Sequence record: PQ615101
Source: Shigella phage SP21535
DNA length: 64,000 nucleotides
Strand: one strand, 5' to 3'
In this document: piece by piece, positions 46,783 through 58,123 of the stretch
Position numbering within the stretch: the stretch's first letter is position 1
How the letters are laid out: every line of letters begins with the position of its first letter
Made by a program: the position numbers and the translations under genes
The notes under the pieces: model-generated
Told to the model about the DNA's origin: nothing
Databases searched by the model: none
Seen by the model: the letters and a program-made list of their open reading frames with translations, nothing else

Positions 46783-47055
46783 ATGAATAAAAACATTGAT
46801 ACAGTTCGTGAAATTATTACTGTTGCGTCTATTTTGATTAAATTTTCCAGAGAAGATATTGTTGAGAATCGTGCTAATTTTATTGCATTTCTGAATGAGA
46901 TTGGAGTAACACATGAAGGTAGAAAGTTGAATCAGAATTCATTCCGTAAAATTGTTTCTGAATTAACTCAAGAAGATAAGAAAACCCTCATCGACGAATT
47001 CAACGAGGGTTTTGAGGGTGTATATCGATATCTAGAGATGTATACGAACAAATAA
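46783..47055 (+). CDS. asiA: anti-sigma-70 factor AsiA
   Basis: 90 aa; MNKNIDTVREIITVASILIKFSREDIVENRANF... recognised as T4 AsiA. Confidence 0.9.
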   Translation: MNKNIDTVREIITVASILIKFSREDIVENRANFIAFLNEIGVTHEGRKLNQNSFRKIVSELTQEDKKTLIDEFNEGFEGVYRYLEMYTNK

Positions 47056-47712
47056 TTATTTAGCCCTTCCTAATATTCTGGCCGCCTGAGCACATATTGA
47101 TTCAAGGCGGTCATTACTTATATGATCATTTCTATACCAGTACATTGTTATTGTTCCAGCATAGATATTATCCAAATTGAAATATGGACAACTGTACATG
47201 TAATTTATTTCGGGAGTAGGCTTTTTGGTTGGTAAAAAAGCAAATTTTGAGTTGGAATAATAATGACGTCCATTTAAATGAACTGCATATTCATCCATAG
47301 TTTTATCAACAGGATATCCTCCAAGTGATTTTTCACTTATTGTTGAAGGTAATTTTCCTTCATATGCTATAATATCAACAAAATAGTTTAAGTTTTTAGG
47401 GCGGAAAGAATACACCGCACTAAAGTCTGCCTCAGATGATATATGAACTATCTGGAGTTGTTCCAGGGCGACAGATTCAAAGCGTGCATTTCTTTCCTTT
47501 TCAATAATTTCACTGTATGTTTCATACTTTGATTGCTTATAGTACTCAAAGAAACTATCTCCCCTATACCAAACAATCGCCATTATAAACAAAAGAATTA
47601 CGACAGCTACCCGGGAAGCAAGAACTTTCCCGGTAGCGTTATCTTTGAACAAGCGATCTAGAACACCAAACAGAATATCAGAGGGCGAAAATGATATTCT
47701 AGGTGCTGCCAT
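47056..47712 (-). CDS. t: holin T
   Basis: 218 aa; N-terminal TM segment VAVVILLFIMAIVWY and large periplasmic domain; RBS AAGGAGGG. Confidence 0.9.
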   Translation of the reverse strand: MAAPRISFSPSDILFGVLDRLFKDNATGKVLASRVAVVILLFIMAIVWYRGDSFFEYYKQSKYETYSEIIEKERNARFESVALEQLQIVHISSEADFSAVYSFRPKNLNYFVDIIAYEGKLPSTISEKSLGGYPVDKTMDEYAVHLNGRHYYSNSKFAFLPTKKPTPEINYMYSCPYFNLDNIYAGTITMYWYRNDHISNDRLESICAQAARILGRAK

Positions 47713-47729
47713 AGACCCTCCTTTTAAGG

Positions 47730-47737
47730 ATATTTAT
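47730..47737 (-). promoter_or_regulatory. candidate late promoter for t
   Basis: AATAAATA (7/8 match to TATAAATA) on minus strand upstream of t RBS. Confidence 0.4.
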
Positions 47738-47743
47738 TCAAAA

Positions 47744-48538
47744 TTATACTCTTGAACCATATATTGTACCAACTTTAGTCCAAGTTGGAGCATTACCAGT
47801 AACAGCTTTACCTGCTGCGCCAGGTGAGTTCGAATAGCCGCTCAATCTAACCGCATCCTTACCTCGTTCACCAACGTTACCGCCATCGCCGCCGTAGTAT
47901 CCAACGCCGGAATACATTTTTCCGCCTGCACCTGGAGATGTTAAAGATGCCGATGCGCCCGGGGCTGCTGCGCCATTATTGCCACCAGCTCCGAAAGGAC
48001 GTCCACCGCCACCGCCAGAAACATATTTACCTCCCCATCCATTATCAGTTGATTGGGCGCCACCACCGCCACCACCGCCAGCAATCGCTCCATTGTTAGT
48101 GATTCGTAGACGAGTACCTATACCATTGTTAATTGCAGTACCGCCAGCTTGGCCTGCCTGGTTTCCCGCTTGCGCGCCACGACCACCACGACCATATACT
48201 GTTACGCCACCATTTATAATAAGCGTTACATAAGCATTAGTTAATGAACTAGGAAAATCTAAGCAAGGTTGCCCAGCTGATGAAGAAACAATATTTCCTG
48301 TAATAGTAACAACAACAGGAGTACTACCTTGAGATTTGAGATAATTTATTAGCGTGTCTTTATTATATGAATTACTAGCGCCAATACTGTAATATACTTC
48401 TTTAGATTGCCCAGCCATTGAGCTCATCCAACCAGGAACTGAAACACGAACTGCTTTCATTGCAGCATCCATCCAGCGTTGTCCAGTTTCATTCACGGCA
48501 GATTCGCCAATCCAGCCAGGAACACCTACAATTGCCAT
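47744..48538 (-). CDS. 38: gp38 tail-fibre adhesin (glycine-rich, T2-type)
   Basis: 264 aa; conserved N-terminus then multiple poly-Gly runs (GGGGGGG, GGGGG) separated by variable segments; located after gene 37. Confidence 0.8.
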   Translation of the reverse strand: MAIVGVPGWIGESAVNETGQRWMDAAMKAVRVSVPGWMSSMAGQSKEVYYSIGASNSYNKDTLINYLKSQGSTPVVVTITGNIVSSSAGQPCLDFPSSLTNAYVTLIINGGVTVYGRGGRGAQAGNQAGQAGGTAINNGIGTRLRITNNGAIAGGGGGGGAQSTDNGWGGKYVSGGGGGRPFGAGGNNGAAAPGASASLTSPGAGGKMYSGVGYYGGDGGNVGERGKDAVRLSGYSNSPGAAGKAVTGNAPTWTKVGTIYGSRV

Positions 48539-48548
48539 TAAAAATCCT

Positions 48549-48570
48549 TAGAGGGCCGAAGCCCTCTTTT
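48549..48570 (-). other. UUCG-tetraloop hairpin between genes 37 and 38
   Basis: GAGGGC-TTCG-GCCCTC on the minus strand. Confidence 0.4.
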
Positions 48571-51500
48571 ACATAAGTTTAGATTCAAGTTCTTTTACAC
48601 GAGAAGAAAGTGTTTTCACAGCTTCAACCAGAAGAGCAATCTGGGCTTGAGAAGAAACAGTGAGTATTTTATTACCCTTGCTATCTTCTGTTTCACGGAC
48701 GGCTTCTGGTAAAACGTCTTGCAACGTTTGAGCCACAATACCTGCTTCAGTTTCAATTGCCTCTCCACCGATGTATTCAGCTTTATCGTAAATGACACCG
48801 TTAAGTTTTTCAACTTTATCAAGTGCATTTTCGATAGGTTTAAAGTTGGATTTTAAACGAATATCAGAACGAATATAAACGTTTGGAGCATTTATATTTT
48901 TATATGAGTACAAATCACCGTTTTGGAAACGGAATACTTGTACACTGTTCGCATATATGTCTAATAATCCATCGCCATTTTGCTTAATACCAGTATCGCT
49001 ATCGCCAAATGCTATACTATTTCCACCAAGTGCGTTATTGATATTAATACCAAATGAATTCATTTGGTTAACACCAGCTACAGTAGCATTATTTACTACA
49101 AAACGGTTAGCTCCACCTGGAGCTTTTTCAAAGTAAGCAATATAGTTAGTTTCATCGGCAATTTCAATACGGTTACCACGAGAAGCATCGCCAGCATGAA
49201 ATATTCTCATATTTCTTGGGTTAGCACCAGACTTATCAAAGTTAATAGAACCATTATCTTTGACATTTATGCTATTATAGAATAAAGCAGCACTGCGAAC
49301 AGCTATGCCGTTATTCATTAATACTTCGCCTGTTGTTAAGTTAATTGCGAAAGGACGCTTACTATTCCAATCACCGTTAACAGTTGCTTCGCCATCGGTG
49401 GCATTTTTATCTGTAAACAGAATATAAAAACTACTGCCATCATTTCGTAGCATTGTAGCAACAGAACCAGTTTTATCGCTGTTGCTTCTAATACGAATAC
49501 CAGTTTGGTTATTAATAGCTATTTCAGAATCGGCTTCATAACGCTTAACTTTGCCGCGATCAACCAAGTTATTAAGAACATTAGCAACTTGCCCATCAAC
49601 TGCTGTATCTGGAAGAGCATCCACAGGTGATTGGGTAGATGAGTTAATACCAATAACGCTAACAGTAGCATTTTCGGTACATGACCATTCACAAGTTAAT
49701 TGATTGCAATATGTTCCGGCATAAACATAAATGTCATATGTATCTCCAGAGACGTTATTAACTGCAATATTTTTAAATGCAGCTGCAATTGTTCTTGTGT
49801 ATAATACAGCATTTAAGTCAGCAGGTCTTTCATTACTAGTACGTAAAACAATTTCAGCAATATTGCATTGTGTGAATAATCCACTATTAAATCCAGAACC
49901 ACCGGCTATTTTAAAGAAGACCGTAGAAGTGGATTGTGGCATTGTTACTGTTGCAAACTTATACCATCCAGCAGTTGCTCCATAAGTAATAAATCCAGAA
50001 TTAACTTTACGATTTAGCGTGGTGTTTAAGTTAGCAAAGTTTCCTGAACCGCTAGTAATATTACCGTCAGTTCCTAGTTGGGCATTTCCGACTTTAAAGG
50101 GTTTAGTGATTGACACGAAATTATCACTTATAACAAGACCATGTCCATAAGATTGGCTATAAAGTGATAAATCATTTCCAGCACCACCAAGACCAACATA
50201 CCACGATCTAGTTCCAGCTTTAGAACCCTGCAAATAATTAGCAGAAGAAGATGAAGGAGAATCTAGAGTAAGCGCTGCATTACGTTCATTAATAGTTACT
50301 GGACATATCATTTTAATAGTTTTAAGACTATTACTTACTTGTAATAATCCTGTACCAGATCCAGAATCTCCTAAATGAACATCATGCGACATTTTAACTG
50401 TGCCGGTGTTCAGTTCTATTATCAATGGTCTAAGATTACTTATACCGCCAGATTCTCCAGCATCTTTAAGAGTCGGGATAATATAAAGATTACTTTCTGA
50501 GCGACGGAAAATAGCACCATATTCGGCATTCCAAATTCTTAATGCATCAGCAGTTCCGCCGATTTTAACTTGTCCAGTAATAGAAGAACCACCTTGGACA
50601 AACAAACCATTAGACATGGTAACATTACCGACTAAAGTGCTTAATCCATTAACTTTAAAACTTCCGTCAGTAATAATACTTCCTCTAGCATTAACAGCTC
50701 CAGCAAACTGGGTTACAACAGGACCAGTAGTTTCTGAGCCGCTTGGGGCTACACGCTGGGAATAAAAATAATAACCTTGTCCGTCAGCTACTTCAAAAAC
50801 TGTTTCACGATTACGATCGCCAGATGCGTTAAATGAATTACCCCACGCTTTAACGGTTACATAGCTTTTATTTTGACCAGCACGCTTACCGCCTTCCCAC
50901 ATGATTTGCTTAGTACCATCAATTGTAGTAGTTGGAGCGAATGTCAGCCCAGCAGTAGAATTATTAGCTGCTAAATATATGCCGTTATATATTGAAAGCT
51001 GCTTAACAGATGTAATACCGCCATCAGCATAAAACATTACATTATTTGCACCGGTTACTAGTTTAAGAATACCCGGGTTAACTTCCATGCCTTCTTGAGT
51101 ATTAATATTAGTTTTTCCTTTACCACGGAAATAGTGGTTCATTTTACCGCCAGAGTTATATCCAATGTGGGTTTGACCATCTCCAGCAGAGTTTTCATCA
51201 GCCTGTGTTTGAACTGATAAAAATGCAGCATTCGTACCTGGCATAATCCAAGTTGCACCTTGGTCTTCTGAACGTCCAAATAATGCTTTACGAGTACTAC
51301 GGAAACTGTCAGGAGTAATAGACGCGATAGAAAGACCATTAGCAACTAAATCATATACACCAGATCTTTTATATGATATACCAGTTGCGGCATCTCCAAT
51401 GACTATATAGCATTCACCCATTGCTCCAGTGGAGCCGTAATTATTAATGTTTTCATCTGTTGTAATTGTACCAATTGCGAGTGAGCGTCGCAATACTAAA

Positions 51501-52351
51501 GACCCATCATTGCGAAGGCCCATTTGTTTATTAACGGCTGTATTACCGGTCCACCAAGACAGTTCATCACTTTTTCCGGTTTGTGCAGAAGCTAATTCAT
51601 GATAAATCGTACCACCAGATTTTGCACGGAATTTACGAAGGTAATTAATTCCGTTTGTTTCACCAGTTCCAGGATAAACATATTGAACTAATGACTGCGA
51701 ATCGTATTGTCCAAACGCTTTCGTATCAAATGAAATATTTTTAGTTACAACAGATGGACCAATCAAAGAACCTGTTCTTGTTTCAATATTACTCTGAGCG
51801 ACTAAATATCCACCAGATACTAATAAATTACCAGAATCAACTTGAAAATTACCTGAGCGCGCAAATGTCCAATATTTAGATTGACCAGTTTCATCAATAT
51901 AATGAATCTTTAACGAACCTTCAGAAACTAAAGTACCTAATGAAAAAGTTCCATCTTTAAAGCGCTGTTTAATTATAGGATTATATTCAGATGTGGAAGT
52001 AGCTGAGCTTAAATCTACAAAAATTGGAGCTTTTGCAGTGTGTTGACCGGACCAAGCCCCACTTCCAGTAGTACGATAATTAAACTCAATATATCCACCA
52101 CTTGCTATAATCTGCGGGCCAATTAAATTAAATTTTCCAGTCTGTGTATAATCACCAGTTTGAGTGATATTTCCATTGATATTACCGCCAGCGGAAATGC
52201 TTAAGTCAATGATATTTCCTGAATCATCTTTAGTAAAAATTGTTCTATCTTTTAAGTTTATAGCCAATTCACCTTCGGCTAATACTGAAGCAGCAGGACG
52301 TGCACCTGCGGTTTTGCTTCTTTTAAATTGTATTTGTTTTAAAGTAGCCAT
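48569..52351 (-). CDS. 37: long tail fibre distal subunit gp37
   Basis: 1260 aa; N-terminal MATLKQIQFKRSKTAGARPA...; C-terminal chaperone-type motif ...VKELESKLM. Confidence 0.85.
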   Translation of the reverse strand: MATLKQIQFKRSKTAGARPAASVLAEGELAINLKDRTIFTKDDSGNIIDLSISAGGNINGNITQTGDYTQTGKFNLIGPQIIASGGYIEFNYRTTGSGAWSGQHTAKAPIFVDLSSATSTSEYNPIIKQRFKDGTFSLGTLVSEGSLKIHYIDETGQSKYWTFARSGNFQVDSGNLLVSGGYLVAQSNIETRTGSLIGPSVVTKNISFDTKAFGQYDSQSLVQYVYPGTGETNGINYLRKFRAKSGGTIYHELASAQTGKSDELSWWTGNTAVNKQMGLRNDGSLVLRRSLAIGTITTDENINNYGSTGAMGECYIVIGDAATGISYKRSGVYDLVANGLSIASITPDSFRSTRKALFGRSEDQGATWIMPGTNAAFLSVQTQADENSAGDGQTHIGYNSGGKMNHYFRGKGKTNINTQEGMEVNPGILKLVTGANNVMFYADGGITSVKQLSIYNGIYLAANNSTAGLTFAPTTTIDGTKQIMWEGGKRAGQNKSYVTVKAWGNSFNASGDRNRETVFEVADGQGYYFYSQRVAPSGSETTGPVVTQFAGAVNARGSIITDGSFKVNGLSTLVGNVTMSNGLFVQGGSSITGQVKIGGTADALRIWNAEYGAIFRRSESNLYIIPTLKDAGESGGISNLRPLIIELNTGTVKMSHDVHLGDSGSGTGLLQVSNSLKTIKMICPVTINERNAALTLDSPSSSSANYLQGSKAGTRSWYVGLGGAGNDLSLYSQSYGHGLVISDNFVSITKPFKVGNAQLGTDGNITSGSGNFANLNTTLNRKVNSGFITYGATAGWYKFATVTMPQSTSTVFFKIAGGSGFNSGLFTQCNIAEIVLRTSNERPADLNAVLYTRTIAAAFKNIAVNNVSGDTYDIYVYAGTYCNQLTCEWSCTENATVSVIGINSSTQSPVDALPDTAVDGQVANVLNNLVDRGKVKRYEADSEIAINNQTGIRIRSNSDKTGSVATMLRNDGSSFYILFTDKNATDGEATVNGDWNSKRPFAINLTTGEVLMNNGIAVRSAALFYNSINVKDNGSINFDKSGANPRNMRIFHAGDASRGNRIEIADETNYIAYFEKAPGGANRFVVNNATVAGVNQMNSFGININNALGGNSIAFGDSDTGIKQNGDGLLDIYANSVQVFRFQNGDLYSYKNINAPNVYIRSDIRLKSNFKPIENALDKVEKLNGVIYDKAEYIGGEAIETEAGIVAQTLQDVLPEAVRETEDSKGNKILTVSSQAQIALLVEAVKTLSSRVKELESKLM

Positions 52352-52359
52352 AAGTCCTC

Positions 52360-53025
52360 TTAATAATAGCCGAAATCTTGAACAGAATCCTTAATTACGA
52401 TTTGGTCAAATCGTGGAACATGTGAAGGTTGAGATGCAGGATTCTGTGAGAAAAAGTTTGGTGCGGTTAAGTTTCCAATCATAGTATCACCAGATCGTAA
52501 CACTCTAGAGTTCGCATTTGCCGTAACAGTATTTATTGCTCCGTCAACATAGTCCTTTCTAGTAAGGTCATTCGCTGCTATAGGAGCAGCTGCATCACTT
52601 CTTACTTGACCCGCAGCTGATACAACACCTTTTGTGCTAATATCACCATTACGTGCATTAATTACAACAGTTCGGGCTGCTGAACCCTGTGATGATTTAA
52701 AACCAATACCATTCCACGAAACAATATCGATATTTGCTACAGCAAAAGTAGCATTATCACCGTTACCTGGATAAATACCGCACGGGTTTGTATTGTTTAC
52801 AGCATATGGTACTTGAACACCAGCATTAAATGTTACCTTTGATGCATAAGTACCACCATTAGCTTTAGAAACGAAATCGTTATCAGCAGCTTGTGGTTTA
52901 TTATATTCTGAATATATTTTAAATGATTTATAGAGTACATCGTCACCGGCTGGATTCAATGGAAAATTTCCTTGATGCCAAATGACAGAGCCTCCAGTTG
53001 TTGAACCTACTTTTAAATCAGCCAT
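52360..53025 (-). CDS. 36: tail fibre hinge connector gp36
   Basis: 221 aa; MADLKVGSTTGG... Confidence 0.8.
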   Translation of the reverse strand: MADLKVGSTTGGSVIWHQGNFPLNPAGDDVLYKSFKIYSEYNKPQAADNDFVSKANGGTYASKVTFNAGVQVPYAVNNTNPCGIYPGNGDNATFAVANIDIVSWNGIGFKSSQGSAARTVVINARNGDISTKGVVSAAGQVRSDAAAPIAANDLTRKDYVDGAINTVTANANSRVLRSGDTMIGNLTAPNFFSQNPASQPSHVPRFDQIVIKDSVQDFGYY

Positions 53026-53048: not shown

Positions 53049-53056
53049 TATTTATA
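53049..53056 (-). promoter_or_regulatory. late promoter (TATAAATA) for genes 36-37
   Basis: Exact TATAAATA on minus strand between gene 35 terminator and gene 36 start. Confidence 0.7.
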
Positions 53057-53058
53057 AA

Positions 53059-53082
53059 GAAAAAGGGAACCCGAAGGCTCCC
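53059..53082 (-). terminator. intrinsic terminator after gene 35
   Basis: minus-strand GGGAGCC-TTCG-GGTTCCC followed by TTTTT. Confidence 0.65.
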
Positions 53083-53087
53083 TCAAT

Positions 53088-54203
53088 TTATACTTCTCTA
53101 AATTCTTGCCCAAACACTTTACCAGTTTTAGACGATGCTTGCGTAGGAAGTACCATTATATCCGGAGGTGAAGCAGATTCACAGATATAATTAACACGAA
53201 TACCATTGACGCCAAATTCAGCAGGTTTCGAAATACCTCCATTTCTTGACACCTCAGAAAAGCTTAAATTTCTCATGCCACCTTGACCGGCTTGTGCAGT
53301 TCTTTGTGCGTATATCGTAAATCCCACAGCGTTTTCTGGAACAACTACATAATCTTCCTTTAATTCCCAAGACCCAGCTTGTCCGGTAAACTCAGCTTGT
53401 GTTGAAGAAATATATCCATTTGATGCATTATAAAAACGGATAGATATATTTGTAGTTCCAAGCGCAAGTAAATCTGCATCGGCATATAACTGAGCTTTAA
53501 GATAAAGAACATCGCCAGGAATTAAATTATAGTCAGATAATTTACTTATAGCAGCTGAAGTTGGCAATCGCGCAATTTCGTTATTAGTTCCACCAACCGC
53601 TGACATAAATTGCTCAACGCTTTCATATGTTCTTCTTGGAAAGCCGGTAGCTCCAACGTCTTCTAAACTGTCAAATACAACATCTAAAATAGTTTGATAA
53701 TCATCTGTGCTTTTTCTATTACTTAATTTAACATGCTCTAATGCAATAGCTCTTTTAGAAGAAGTGTAAAAAGCAGCATATGATACGTCGAATCTTGACA
53801 ATATAGAATCAGATGGAAAAGCAGACGTTCCTGCGGTTCTTAACCAAGACACCACTTCAGGAGGAAAATTAACCTTTCCACTAGTTAATATAGCAACAAT
53901 TCGATTATTCGTCAAAGAATTCATGAAACTAACAAAAGCAGCTGATGTAGTATCATTTGAAGTCGAAAAAGCATATGACTTACTATCAACTAATGCTCCT
54001 GTAGAAGGGTCAAAAACTCTTAAATGAAGACCTGCATTAAATGTTTGATTTCCGACAGGATTATCCTGAAATTTAACGTATGGTCCTGATGTAGAAAGCG
54101 GGCAAGAACCCGCTATACTTATTTTGTATCTTACTGAATTACTTTCCGATAAAAATGGCGTTTGGACGTATCCTTGTCCAAACTCTGCCATAAATTTTTC
54201 CAT
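53088..54203 (-). CDS. 35: tail fibre hinge protein gp35
   Basis: 371 aa between 34 and 36. Confidence 0.8.
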   Translation of the reverse strand: MEKFMAEFGQGYVQTPFLSESNSVRYKISIAGSCPLSTSGPYVKFQDNPVGNQTFNAGLHLRVFDPSTGALVDSKSYAFSTSNDTTSAAFVSFMNSLTNNRIVAILTSGKVNFPPEVVSWLRTAGTSAFPSDSILSRFDVSYAAFYTSSKRAIALEHVKLSNRKSTDDYQTILDVVFDSLEDVGATGFPRRTYESVEQFMSAVGGTNNEIARLPTSAAISKLSDYNLIPGDVLYLKAQLYADADLLALGTTNISIRFYNASNGYISSTQAEFTGQAGSWELKEDYVVVPENAVGFTIYAQRTAQAGQGGMRNLSFSEVSRNGGISKPAEFGVNGIRVNYICESASPPDIMVLPTQASSKTGKVFGQEFREV

Positions 54204-54211
54204 AATACCTC

Positions 54212-57200
54212 TTATTCAACCCATTCAAATTTAACCGTTTTATTCACTGGGTCAGGAATAATGCGAACATTACCAATTCGTAAGAAATCACGAATAGTAA
54301 GATTCCCCATTGTAGCATTATCAGATGGTAAAGCACCAATATCAGATGGTTGAGGAGGGTTACCTCCGTCAAATACCTGAACAAAACTTGACCAGGAGTT
54401 TTTGGTTTTCTGCCATGTACGCGTCCAGCGAGTGGTACGCGCTTCTGGAGTCGTTGGATAAGTAATCCAATCTTGGTAAAGCGAATCAAGTGTGTTACCA
54501 AACTGAGTCAATGTACCAGGAGATTTAACCTCTTCTCCGCGTTCTAAGTATGGAAGTCCAGTCACTTCATTAGTTTTTTCAACCATTTTAAAATAACCTG
54601 GGAACTGGTTATAAGTAGCTGAATCATTAATGTCAATTGACCAGAATCCTACAGTATCAGATGTTGGCGCACGGGTGTATAGGTCAGATGTTTTAGTACC
54701 TTGAGAACGAATTCTCGAGTTAACTGTTAAACCACCTGAATTTATAGTAGCACCTTTGGCAATGATTAATCTTTCACCAATCGTTACTTGACCAGATGCA
54801 TTATTAATAGCTAAAGGACGTAATCCATTAAATCCGCCAGTCTGATCACCCGATGCAGTGAGCATAAAATATGTGCTTCCGCCATCATTCCTGATAAAGA
54901 ATCCATAATTACCATTTATTGCTCTAAAGGCATTTGCTGATTTACTGGTGAATTCGCCATTAGCAGTAACTGAACGACCGAATGTTGCAGTGCCATTCAC
55001 ATTCATCAAACCGGAAGCATTAACATTTATTGGCATTACAGTACCGTTAATGCTAAACGTTATATTCCCAGCTTTATTGCGTTGAGAATAAAAGTGATTA
55101 GACGTTTCATCACCAACTTCAAATACAGTAGAACGTGTTGTATCTGAACCGCCACCAAACTGATTTCCCCAAACTCTGATATTCATCGTCTGTGCTGGGT
55201 TAGTTCCAGTCTGAGGTCCTTTTTCAAAAATCAGACGAGTTGCTGTTCCAGCGTTAGAAATAGTTAATGTACTATTTGCCGAAACTGATCCACCAAACGT
55301 AGCAGTACTAGATGATACAAGAGGGGCACTCAGATTCGTTTGTTGGGTTAAGGTTAGTGAACCATTAACCGTCTGTGCAATATCCCTACGAATGAACTGA
55401 GATGAATCTAGACCATCCAATAAATTTGTATCAGCAGCTTTTGCTTTTAACGGCAAATAATTTGCTAATACACGGTTTAATTCATATGGTGATACCGCAT
55501 AGCTATTTTTCTCATATGATTCTAACGGTTGTGTTGAACCTACCGTATCATTACCAACGAATGTAATTGAACCAGATGAAGTTTTAACAAAACCTCTTAT
55601 CGCAGTAGTAGCCGCCCAGGTAGGTTCACTCTGCACAATCCATTTTAAATTTTTTGGAGATACAGCAGTATTTGCTGACGTTCCAGCCACAGTTTCAGAC
55701 CGAGTCGCAACTTTAATAACACCTTCCTGTGCTTCAGTAGATTTAGTACCTAAAAGCTTTTTAGGAGTTATTAAAACATTATCTAATTTTCCTGCAGCAG
55801 CTTCAACCTGTGTAGCTACACGAAGTGTACCACGCTGTGTCTCATTTGCTTCAAGAATATTAAGGGTATAATGGTCCCAGAGAGTTCCTGATTCAACTAA
55901 TCCAGATAGAGCAACAACAGAAGTACGATCAGTACTATTAAATCTAGTTTTAATTTTTAATGGTGTAGAGATACGAGTATCGTCGACGCCTGCGTCGAAT
56001 TCAACTTGTGTAGCAATTTCAGCTATACCACTTAAACTTTCAGTTGCTTTACGATCATTTAAAGTTTTAGGAGTGACTGCACGAGTATAATCAGTTCCTG
56101 TATTAACTTCACTTTGCGTAGCAATTTCAATTAAACCAATTCTTCCATCAGTTGATGTCTTTTTATGTAACGTTTCTGGCGTTACAACCGCATTTGCCCA
56201 TCCTTCTTGACTTTTTCCAGCAATTACTTCACTTTCAACTGCTAAAATTACTGCACCTTGTTGTGTTGGAGTAGCTTTATACTGATCCAAAGCTTTAGGC
56301 GAAACAACTAAATTATTAGTGTTTTTATTGTAAACATTTGTACCGTTTAATTCACGACTAGAAGCTGGAGTAGCTCCTGTAGTAGATACAAAAGTTACAA
56401 TACCAGATAATGACTCAGAACCTTGTCGAGCTTGAAGCTTTTTAGGAGTGATGATTGTAGTATCATCAGTACCTGCATTAGTTTCCTGTTGCGTAGCAAT
56501 TTCAGCAACACCTCTGCGAGTTTCTGTAGCAGTTCTTTCATTCAGCTTTTTAGGAGTAATGATAATATCATCAGCAAAAGAGAATGTAGTGTTCTGGTTC
56601 ACTTGAGCAGTAGTTGCTATTCTTGCGATACCTCTGCGAGTTTCTGTAGCAGTACGGTTAGCTAATGTTTCTGGTGTAATTGCTAATTCTTTTTGCGGAG
56701 AATTTTCTAAATCGACGTTAGCTTGAGCTTGTGTAGCTAAAGCAATTACGCCTAATCTTGCTCTAGTAGAATCATTTAAAGAATCTACTCTTTCTACAGT
56801 TGGAACGTTTTGCTGTACAACCCAGTATTTTCCATCAGAATCTTCTATATAAGCAAGTTGTAAAACTGGAACATAATTAGTTTCACCGTTAAAAACTAAT
56901 TCTTGAACAGTTACCCATTTAGTTTCAGGTGGATATTCTGAACGTTTTGGGAATTGCAGCAATTGAACTGAAGAAGCAATTTTATCTTCACCGGCAGCTT
57001 TGATTTTAACTGTTTGTCCTTTTCTCATGTAATTCATGGAAATTTTAACAGTATCACCAACAGAGATATCAGTAGGAAGCTGAAGCTCAATTGTTTGGGT
57101 TGTTCCATTATTCGCACCAAATACCATAACTTCTTCATTTGGACGAATGTTTGAATTAGTTGTTATGATACGTAAACGTGCTTTACTATCCCCGTCAAAT

Positions 57201-58081
57201 AATCTCCATAATTTCTCATTATCATCAAACATCAAGAAACCGTCAATCGTTGTACGGCCTTCAATGGAATGAGTTCCGACTTCTTGTATTGAAGTCGTTT
57301 CATCGTATGTAGTAACAATTGTATGATAAAGCGGATTTAGTTTATCTAAATCGACGAAATTAATAATATCGCCATGATTAGCAAATCTTGGAAGTTTAAC
57401 ATTAATTGGTGCAGCAGAAGTAAATCTACGCACGATAAAATCGTTGGATTGCGCTTGATAAGTATTCGCTGGTGTTACAACTACAGCTTCTCTACTATAA
57501 TCAGCAACATACATTTGCCACAGACGATTACTAAAAATTAAAACTATCTGCGATTTTGGATGAGTCATTAGTACTGAACGTACCTGTTCACCTCTAAAGT
57601 TTACAATACTTTGCACTGGAGCTACAATTAAAACTTGGTTAACTCCAGGTTTTCCTCCAATATCTTGGAGAACGATAGTATCACCATCAATTGGAGAAGA
57701 CGGTAAAGTAAACGTAATGTCATTTCCAGCTGCAGTGTTAACCGAAATTGCTTCACCCGATTTTAATTGATATGAACCAGATGAAACCGTAATCCAGTTA
57801 GCATCAGTACGTAATGCTCTCCAGCGTCCGCTATTAAAAGCTCCTGCTGGTTTTGGAATATCATTTATAGCAGCCCAAAAGCGGTTATCATAAATGATTA
57901 CAAAATCTTTTAAATATCCACGAGTTGGATCATATTGTTGAACTGTGTTTTCTTGAATTAAGTAATCAACGTTAACACCGTCAGTTCCTACGGTACGATC
58001 AGCTAAAGCTACGTTGATTATTTTATCGCCACCTGCGTCCAGACCATCTTCTGCTCTGAACTTTCTTTTAATCTCGGCCAT
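54212..58081 (-). CDS. 34: long tail fibre proximal subunit gp34
   Basis: 1289 aa; MAEIKRKFRAEDGLDAGGDKIINVALADRT...; internal repeated TPKxL / ATExxxG modules. Confidence 0.9.
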   Translation of the reverse strand: MAEIKRKFRAEDGLDAGGDKIINVALADRTVGTDGVNVDYLIQENTVQQYDPTRGYLKDFVIIYDNRFWAAINDIPKPAGAFNSGRWRALRTDANWITVSSGSYQLKSGEAISVNTAAGNDITFTLPSSPIDGDTIVLQDIGGKPGVNQVLIVAPVQSIVNFRGEQVRSVLMTHPKSQIVLIFSNRLWQMYVADYSREAVVVTPANTYQAQSNDFIVRRFTSAAPINVKLPRFANHGDIINFVDLDKLNPLYHTIVTTYDETTSIQEVGTHSIEGRTTIDGFLMFDDNEKLWRLFDGDSKARLRIITTNSNIRPNEEVMVFGANNGTTQTIELQLPTDISVGDTVKISMNYMRKGQTVKIKAAGEDKIASSVQLLQFPKRSEYPPETKWVTVQELVFNGETNYVPVLQLAYIEDSDGKYWVVQQNVPTVERVDSLNDSTRARLGVIALATQAQANVDLENSPQKELAITPETLANRTATETRRGIARIATTAQVNQNTTFSFADDIIITPKKLNERTATETRRGVAEIATQQETNAGTDDTTIITPKKLQARQGSESLSGIVTFVSTTGATPASSRELNGTNVYNKNTNNLVVSPKALDQYKATPTQQGAVILAVESEVIAGKSQEGWANAVVTPETLHKKTSTDGRIGLIEIATQSEVNTGTDYTRAVTPKTLNDRKATESLSGIAEIATQVEFDAGVDDTRISTPLKIKTRFNSTDRTSVVALSGLVESGTLWDHYTLNILEANETQRGTLRVATQVEAAAGKLDNVLITPKKLLGTKSTEAQEGVIKVATRSETVAGTSANTAVSPKNLKWIVQSEPTWAATTAIRGFVKTSSGSITFVGNDTVGSTQPLESYEKNSYAVSPYELNRVLANYLPLKAKAADTNLLDGLDSSQFIRRDIAQTVNGSLTLTQQTNLSAPLVSSSTATFGGSVSANSTLTISNAGTATRLIFEKGPQTGTNPAQTMNIRVWGNQFGGGSDTTRSTVFEVGDETSNHFYSQRNKAGNITFSINGTVMPINVNASGLMNVNGTATFGRSVTANGEFTSKSANAFRAINGNYGFFIRNDGGSTYFMLTASGDQTGGFNGLRPLAINNASGQVTIGERLIIAKGATINSGGLTVNSRIRSQGTKTSDLYTRAPTSDTVGFWSIDINDSATYNQFPGYFKMVEKTNEVTGLPYLERGEEVKSPGTLTQFGNTLDSLYQDWITYPTTPEARTTRWTRTWQKTKNSWSSFVQVFDGGNPPQPSDIGALPSDNATMGNLTIRDFLRIGNVRIIPDPVNKTVKFEWVE

Positions 58082-58115: not shown

Positions 58116-58123
58116 TATTTATA
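58116..58123 (-). promoter_or_regulatory. late promoter (TATAAATA) for gene 34
   Basis: Exact TATAAATA on minus strand about 35 nt upstream of gene 34 ATG. Confidence 0.7.

Follow-up and report, generated by a model that had tools for sequence, protein, structure and literature searches.

In T-even phages of the T2/T6 type, gp37 of the long tail fiber is reported to undergo cleavage, after which gp38 caps it (Trojet 2011, PMC3157838). In phage S16, three gp38 tryptophans insert into three pockets on the base of the gp37 trimer (PMC6851490), and gp38 of phage PP01 has been cross-linked to the porin OmpC. The gp38 loops carry specificity: a phylogeny of these adhesins built without the N-terminus predicts the receptor (PMC12032242), swaps of gp38 from hypervariable segment (HVS) 2 onward change the porin used, and a single HVS substitution can switch the receptor, as with Q206L in RB68, which moved that phage from OmpF to OmpW (bioRxiv 10.64898/2026.04.02.716166). 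We analyzed the corresponding module of Shigella phage SP21535 (record PQ615101) in a stretch of 64,000 nucleotides, hereafter the window. In the list of open reading frames (ORFs), gene 38 occupies 47744..48538 (minus strand, 264 aa) and gene 37 occupies 48569..52351 (minus strand, 1260 aa), both with ATG starts. For this module we established what the genes are, how their domains are arranged, which families they belong to, how their alleles are related and where recombination boundaries lie. Genes 36, 37 and 38 are the distal long-tail-fiber, receptor-binding module of a Tequatrovirus, an ime09-like T-even phage. We consider it quite probable that the module as a whole is of the T2 type, with a self-cleaved gp37 capped by a gp38 that most likely binds OmpC.

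The gp38 protein was compared with profile databases and with solved structures. Residues 47-264 match Pfam GP38 (PF05268) at 1e-72, with 244.9 bits against a cut-off of 25 and coverage of model positions 1-218 of 218, and residues 1-42 match Gp38_N (PF21721) at 7e-18 (64.7 bits, cut-off 25). The full-length protein matches PHROG 2056, 'tail fiber protein; host specificity', at 8e-102; NCBIfam contains no model for gp38 or gp37. Among structures, PP01 gp38 (PDB 9V85) was matched over residues 39-264 at 1.6e-55 and S16 gp38 (PDB 6F45 chain D) over residues 8-262 at 6.4e-46. Together, these matches indicate that gp38 is a T2/S16-type tail-fiber tip adhesin. Homology to 9V85 and 6F45 implies a polyglycine-II sandwich fold, and the agreement with two solved adhesins at E<1e-45 makes that fold very probable.

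The composition of the protein follows the same pattern. Glycine accounts for 60 of its 264 residues (22.7%), 48 of them among the 152 residues from 113 to 264, and is arranged in a run of seven (154-160), a run of five (175-179) and eight GG pairs, interrupted by segments free of glycine. A first-pass annotation of this DNA had described a 264-residue gp38 with polyglycine runs separating variable segments and had taken it for a tip adhesin of the T2/T6 type rather than the T4 chaperone; both points agree with what we found. The alignment that it proposed was run with 16 gp38s, with receptor-typed anchors taken from Table S1 of bioRxiv 10.64898/2026.04.02.716166, and delineated hypervariable segments between glycine blocks (G7, G5 and GG) that are invariant. 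This is the pattern of glycine-rich motifs (GRMs) and HVSs described by Trojet 2011 (PMC3157838) and Lutz 2025 (PMC12032242). A C-terminal PxWxxxGxIxG motif is also conserved in the alignment. Recognition loops were mapped by alignment to PP01 gp38, whose loops have been defined crystallographically (PMC12892980); the putative specificity region, with its GRMs and hypervariable loops A-E, falls at approximately residues 113-240 (47819..48202, minus strand). The predicted N-terminal attachment domain, at approximately residues 1-45 (48404..48538, minus strand), contains W9, W22 and W37, all three of which are invariant in 13 aligned gp38s, S16 included.

The partner protein gp37 matches PHROG 1699 at 5e-301 and contains the Pfam domains gp37_trimer, Gp34_trimer and Peptidase_S74. 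The last of these (PF13884) matches residues 1162-1219 at 3.5e-15, starting at model position 1, and includes a C-terminal Ser-x4-Lys dyad, S1162/K1167 in SDIRLK, that aligns with SDRRIK in S16 gp37. On the basis of the Peptidase_S74 match, residues 1162-1260 (48572..48868, minus strand) are assigned to a putative intramolecular chaperone and self-cleaving domain; cleavage at S1162 would remove 99 residues and reduce the full-length protein of 134.6 kDa to a mature form of ~124 kDa. The distal tip, at approximately residues 1096-1161 (48869..49066, minus strand), aligns to S16 gp37 residues 556-641, and residues 1104-1258 match PDB 6F45 chain A at 1.8e-11. By analogy with S16, this tip is the predicted docking site and carrier of gp38 after processing. 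The first-pass annotation also called gp37 long: the figure of 1260 aa is correct, but the length is not distinctive, being mid-range for K3/T2-type relatives (1229-1341 aa); in the comparison set gp37 measures 749 aa in S16, 994 aa in T6 and 1341 aa in T2. Within gp37, residues 596-650 and 967-1010 form an internal repeat of an 'RRSESNxYIIPT...LRP' module that also occurs in gp34 (Pfam Gp34_trimer, two stretches), and PDB 4UXE and 5NXF match residues 467-658.

Genes 38 and 37 are real genes rather than chance ORFs, given the Pfam matches (1e-72 and 3.5e-15, respectively) and those to PHROG 2056 (8e-102) and PHROG 1699 (5e-301). Antisense ORFs lying within both genes (e.g., 47979..48233, plus strand) were rejected as glycine-codon-rich by-products with no support.

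The receptor was assessed by comparing gp38 segment by segment with the receptor-typed anchors. In its affinities the protein is a chimera, with a K3/T2/Bas39-like N-terminus and a loop region closest to PP01. Over residues 1-45 it shares 98-100% identity with the K3/T2/Bas39 lineage and only 47% with PP01. Over residues 151-264 identity to PP01, an OmpC phage, reaches 66%, and the values for S16 and for the Tsx, OmpA, OmpF and FadL anchors lie at 43-57%. At the level of whole alleles it groups at 97.7-98.1% amino-acid identity with the gp38s of ime09, CrRp10, ECP2301, ESh26, Sf22 and KRT47, differing from Sf22 at 6 and from KRT47 at 5 of 264 residues and remaining 97-98% identical to both over residues 151-264. 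A search with the HVSs only found just the ime09/Sf22/KRT47-type group, and the hypervariable loops match an allele for which OmpC dependence is experimental: as relayed in PMC12892980 and PMC11654681, Sf22 and KRT47 were reported to require OmpC (Tinney et al. 2022, BBA Biomembr 1864:183920), and mutations in OmpC loops 5 and 7 impaired their adsorption.

Position by position, G208, Y209, Y230 and K168/Y169 of PP01 are conserved as G213, Y214, Y235 and K171/Y172 in the window, as are the PP01 equivalents of Y215 and W168; Y159 and A228 are changed, to Q162 and S233. Between this gene 38 and that of ime09 there are 49 nucleotide differences, amounting to 42 synonymous and 5 non-synonymous codon differences. 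This ratio indicates that the whole adhesin, loops included, is under purifying selection, which argues for a retained binding function. We judge OmpC to be the most likely and best-supported receptor, with reasonably high confidence; the first-pass annotation had named no single receptor.

Several observations weigh on the other side. Y159, which is essential in PP01, is replaced by Q162, and loop D contains two extra residues. Three of the five to six differences from the OmpC-validated alleles lie in or next to recognition loops, and the gp37 that accompanies this gp38 is that of the Tsx phage Bas39. The papers on CrRp10, SH7 and SA21RB (PMC6956337) contain no receptor data for this allele. 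A single-sequence AlphaFold2 model was unusable (pLDDT 32, pTM 0.23) and gave no confident three-dimensional structure.

Among the loop differences, Q130 lies beside loop A, A191 within loop C and S233 at the tip of loop E; alleles of the ime09/Sf22/KRT47 type have E, K and N at these positions, and PP01 has R188 and A228 at the latter two. The combination is common to phage vB_EcoM_SA21RB (SA21RB) only, and the remaining gp38 differences (positions 28, 83, 89 and 262) are outside the loops. Since single HVS substitutions can switch the receptor, it is conceivable that the phage prefers other OmpC variants or, with lower probability, uses another receptor. Of the five positions that differ from ime09 and KRT47, three are in or beside loops A, C and E; E130Q and K191A each remove a charge, so that the variant loses one negative and one positive charge in addition to having an altered residue at the loop-E tip. 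Electrostatics are said to contribute to the binding of OmpC by Sf22 and KRT47, the substitution A228D at the PP01 residue aligned with S233 abolishes infection, and one-residue receptor switches are documented (bioRxiv 10.64898/2026.04.02.716166). In addition, SA21RB was isolated on non-O157 Shiga toxin-producing E. coli (STEC) and lyses 10 of 22 non-O157 STEC isolates (PMC6956337). A T2-type adhesin whose specificity has been shifted by Q130/A191/S233 toward another set of OmpC variants, another porin or a lipopolysaccharide (LPS) sugar is nevertheless doubtful: the loops are otherwise unchanged, synonymous differences outnumber non-synonymous ones by 42:5, which indicates conserved function, and PP01 A228 tolerates Val and Leu. 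We likewise regard as unlikely the idea that the variant is an adaptive retargeting to other OmpC alleles (e.g., those of non-O157 STEC) or to another surface receptor; if true, it would be a case of specificity switched in nature by three residues, with the rest of the scaffold constant.

The gp37 shaft could be read as pointing to a different receptor. This protein is 95-100% identical per 60-residue bin to gp37 of FriedrichMiescher/Bas39 over its whole length, Bas39 has been typed as Tsx-dependent, and some porin-predictive k-mers map to gp37 (bioRxiv 10.64898/2026.04.02.716166); on these grounds the phage might use Tsx or some other non-OmpC porin. We consider this very improbable, as residues 151-264 of gp38 are only 54% identical to the gp38s of Bas39 and JK38, with unrelated loops, experimental swaps of gp38 alone change the porin used (bioRxiv 10.64898/2026.04.02.716166), and the same OmpC-type gp38 is carried on at least four different gp37 backbones. 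In the JK38 record (MK962755), gene 37 is split into two overlapping coding sequences, which suggests a frameshift or a sequencing error.

The product name 'distal long tail fiber assembly catalyst' in the SA21RB, ime09, teqhal and RB18 records would make gp38 a non-structural assembly catalyst and leave receptor binding to the gp37 C-terminus as in T4, which is scarcely credible when gp38 shows no resemblance to T4 gp38 (the best BLASTP hit has E=0.8 over 6 residues), matches structurally solved tip adhesins strongly over its full length and is paired with a gp37 C-terminus unrelated to the T4 tip, and when the RefSeq note on T4 gene 38 calls the 'gp38' of the T2 subfamily an unrelated adhesin. 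Homology of gp37 to T4 gp37 extends over approximately residues 1-690 (49% over the aligned region) and ends near 690-830; the C-terminal ~570 residues, from ~690, terminate in the S74 domain instead of a T4-like tip, and no T4 gp37-tip structure was found among gp37 PDB hits at E<=0.01. Because BLASTP shows no similarity to T4 gp38, we set aside the 'assembly catalyst' label on the closest GenBank records as carried-over T4 nomenclature that is uninformative on function. Records with this label on a T2-type gp38 are found among OL960580, JN202312, MN895435 and MH553563.

With gp38 taken as an OmpC-binding tip adhesin, the module would be expected to work as follows. gp37 would trimerize into the distal half-fiber, assisted by the intramolecular chaperone (S74) that it carries at its C-terminus; this chaperone would then cut itself off at Ser1162 by means of the Ser1162/Lys1167 dyad with the loss of 99 residues. 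A single gp38 would use its N-terminal domain (W9, W22 and W37) to cap the gp37 tip thus exposed, and its glycine-rich motifs would fold into a polyglycine-II sandwich presenting five hypervariable loops to the cell surface. The most likely target of these loops is the porin OmpC of E. coli, Shigella and Citrobacter, and K171 and Y172 of loop B may also touch LPS, like their PP01 equivalents. Binding by the long fibers would trigger rearrangement of the baseplate and then infection. The cleavage of gp37, the 3:1 stoichiometry, the location of gp38 in the virion and the binding of OmpC are all predicted from homologs.

We also examined the recombination history of the module. Positions 47826..52885, which hold all of gene 37 together with the 3' part of gene 36 and almost the whole of gene 38, form a cassette with 2 mismatches in 5060 nt relative to SA21RB, and in the flanks (~4% divergent) the count rises to 108 per 3000 nt on the left side and 109 per 2400 nt on the right side. 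Put differently, the module is 99.8% identical to SA21RB at the nucleotide level versus only 95.7% for the surrounding 25 kb, and no record is more than 95.7% identical across 39001-64000; the best matches to the first 25 kb of the window are other phages, at ~96%. The stretch 47056-47825, comprising the holin gene and the final ~80 nt of gene 38, is identical to ime09, not SA21RB. Because this ime09-identical end adjoins an SA21RB-like 5-kb cassette, the genome is a new mosaic that matches no phage in the collection. The 5.06-kb cassette itself was recently exchanged, and its junctions fall within gene 36 and within the conserved 3' end of gene 38. The first-pass annotation had called the locus a recombination hotspot, and both the near-identical cassette in divergent flanks and the mosaic identity profiles of gp37 bear this out.

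Within the cassette, an older mosaic is apparent. gp37 follows FriedrichMiescher/Bas39 throughout, and gp38 diverges from the Bas39/RB18 type between ~48400 and ~47800; the ime09-type phages share gp38 and have very different gp37 shafts until ~49050. Sf22, CrRp10 and RB18 each have different blocks of gp37 identity. The interval ~49000-48400, which spans the chaperone domain of gene 37, the attachment domain of gene 38 and the spacer between the two genes, is conserved in the comparisons with Bas39, RB18, ime09, Sf22 and CrRp10 and would be the obvious crossover region, in agreement with the exchange at conserved motifs reported earlier (PMC3157838). The ime09-type loop allele is rare, with 10 records from 7 phages among 763 phage records with a gp38 homolog. 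In the comparison with ime09 (a 795-nt gene 38), synonymous differences are concentrated in the glycine codons of the glycine-rich motifs (GGT/GGC/GGA swaps). These motifs are invariant as protein and not specially conserved as DNA, an observation that bears on the idea that they serve as recombination linkers.

The order of genes along the locus is 34, 35, 36, 37, 38 and holin t. Gene 34 (54212..58081) was assigned from the ORF list and the Pfam scan; gene 35 (53088..54203, minus strand) encodes the hinge protein, and gene 36 (52360..53025, minus strand; Pfam Phage_T4_gp36, 1.7e-43) the hinge connector or short distal subunit. Holin gene t (47056..47712, minus strand; Pfam Phage_holin_T, 2e-117) is directly downstream of gene 38, which is itself directly downstream of gene 37, the location expected for a member of the gp38 adhesin family. 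The order 36-37-38-t is the same in T2, T6, PP01 and S16. GC content is 44-45% at 47500-48499 versus 29-39% in the flanks, a local rise that fits the abundance of GGN codons in gene 38. Residues 58-126 of gp35 match Pfam PF15711 ILEI (interleukin-like EMT inducer/FAM3 domain) at 1e-8, with 36 bits against a cut-off of 27, an unexpected family name for a phage fiber hinge.

A T4-type late promoter motif, TATAAATA, is present as an exact match upstream of gene 36 (53049..53056, minus strand), and a second copy is located upstream of gene 34 (58116-58123). Homologous sites are annotated in SA21RB, with a late promoter at the counterpart of 53049..53056. TATAAATA is without enrichment in the window (4 found versus 10 expected), and we accepted as promoters only the two copies that closely precede genes 36 and 34; for the candidate before gene 36 it is position and homology that suggest this role. 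Genes 36, 37 and 38 are probably transcribed late from this promoter. A terminator-like hairpin after gene 35 (53063..53084, minus strand) corresponds to an annotated terminator in SA21RB. A sigma-70 scan was at chance level (24 sites versus 21.2 expected) and is uninformative for phage late genes, and Rfam at gathering thresholds gave no match in the window.

The spacer between genes 37 and 38 is 30 nt long and consists of a hairpin, then AAGGA, then the gene 38 ATG. The hairpin (48550..48567, minus strand; AGAGGGC-TTCG-GCCCTCT) has a 7-bp GC-rich stem and a TTCG loop; it is perfect, with a UUCG-type tetraloop, occupies most of the spacer and directly precedes the gene 38 Shine-Dalgarno sequence. 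It may act as an RNA-stability, attenuator or translational-coupling element. In the K3 record X04747, a stem-loop or potential terminator is annotated within the gene 37 record. A strong 14-bp terminator-like hairpin for the late 36-37-38-t transcript follows the holin gene at 46981-47013 (minus strand) and sits inside the convergent asiA gene (46783-47055, plus strand); SA21RB has terminators annotated on both strands in this region.

The host range of the phage is set mainly by this module, and the allele that it carries therefore gives a practical prediction, namely that infection depends on OmpC and that mutations in ompC or ompR bring resistance; such a prediction should be useful for choosing and combining therapeutic and biocontrol phages. 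It also provides a clean example of cassette exchange in T-even fibers, with an OmpC-type gp38 on a shaft otherwise seen with Tsx-type gp38.

The architecture, structure class, receptor class and recombination behavior of such modules have already been published, and a near-identical module is already in GenBank; what this analysis adds is an assignment to OmpC, precise borders for the cassette, a predicted site of cleavage and a loop variant of three residues. In T4, genes 37 and 38 are in the same position, but gp38 is an unrelated 183-aa chaperone and the C-terminus of gp37 is itself the receptor-binding tip, without a counterpart in this gp37. The S16 tip (6F45) consists of a gp37 trimer with its chaperone released and a monomeric gp38 cap with three docking tryptophans and a polyglycine-II sandwich. 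S16 belongs to another genus (Gelderlandvirus), however; its gp38 is 43-53% identical per segment and has a shorter loop B, and its gp37 has 749 aa versus 1260 aa here. The closest structurally solved relative is gp38 of PP01 (9V85; OmpC of E. coli O157), which has the same loop architecture, although its N-terminal and beta-helix parts are only 34-47% identical and loop C in the window is without R188/W189 of PP01. PP01 needs the O157-specific GVIN insertion in OmpC loop 7, a requirement that need not apply to the gp38 described here.

Among closer relatives, gp37 of FriedrichMiescher/Bas39 is also 1260 aa long and has a K3/T2-type shaft, like that of RB18. In both Bas39 and RB18 the 3' end of gene 37 and the 5' end of gene 38 are conserved with the window, but the gp38 loops are of the Tsx type. 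Conversely, Sf22, KRT47, ime09, CrRp10, ECP2301 and ESh26 have the same 264-aa gp38 allele, with identical loops B and D; the gp38 genes of the Sf22/KRT47/ime09 group show ~6% nucleotide divergence, mostly synonymous, and their gp37 shafts are 18-70% identical to that of the window in many bins. Nearest of all is SA21RB (OL960580, SA21RB_244/245), which carries a different holin allele and whose gp38 differs only at S262A and has the same Q130/A191/S233 variant.

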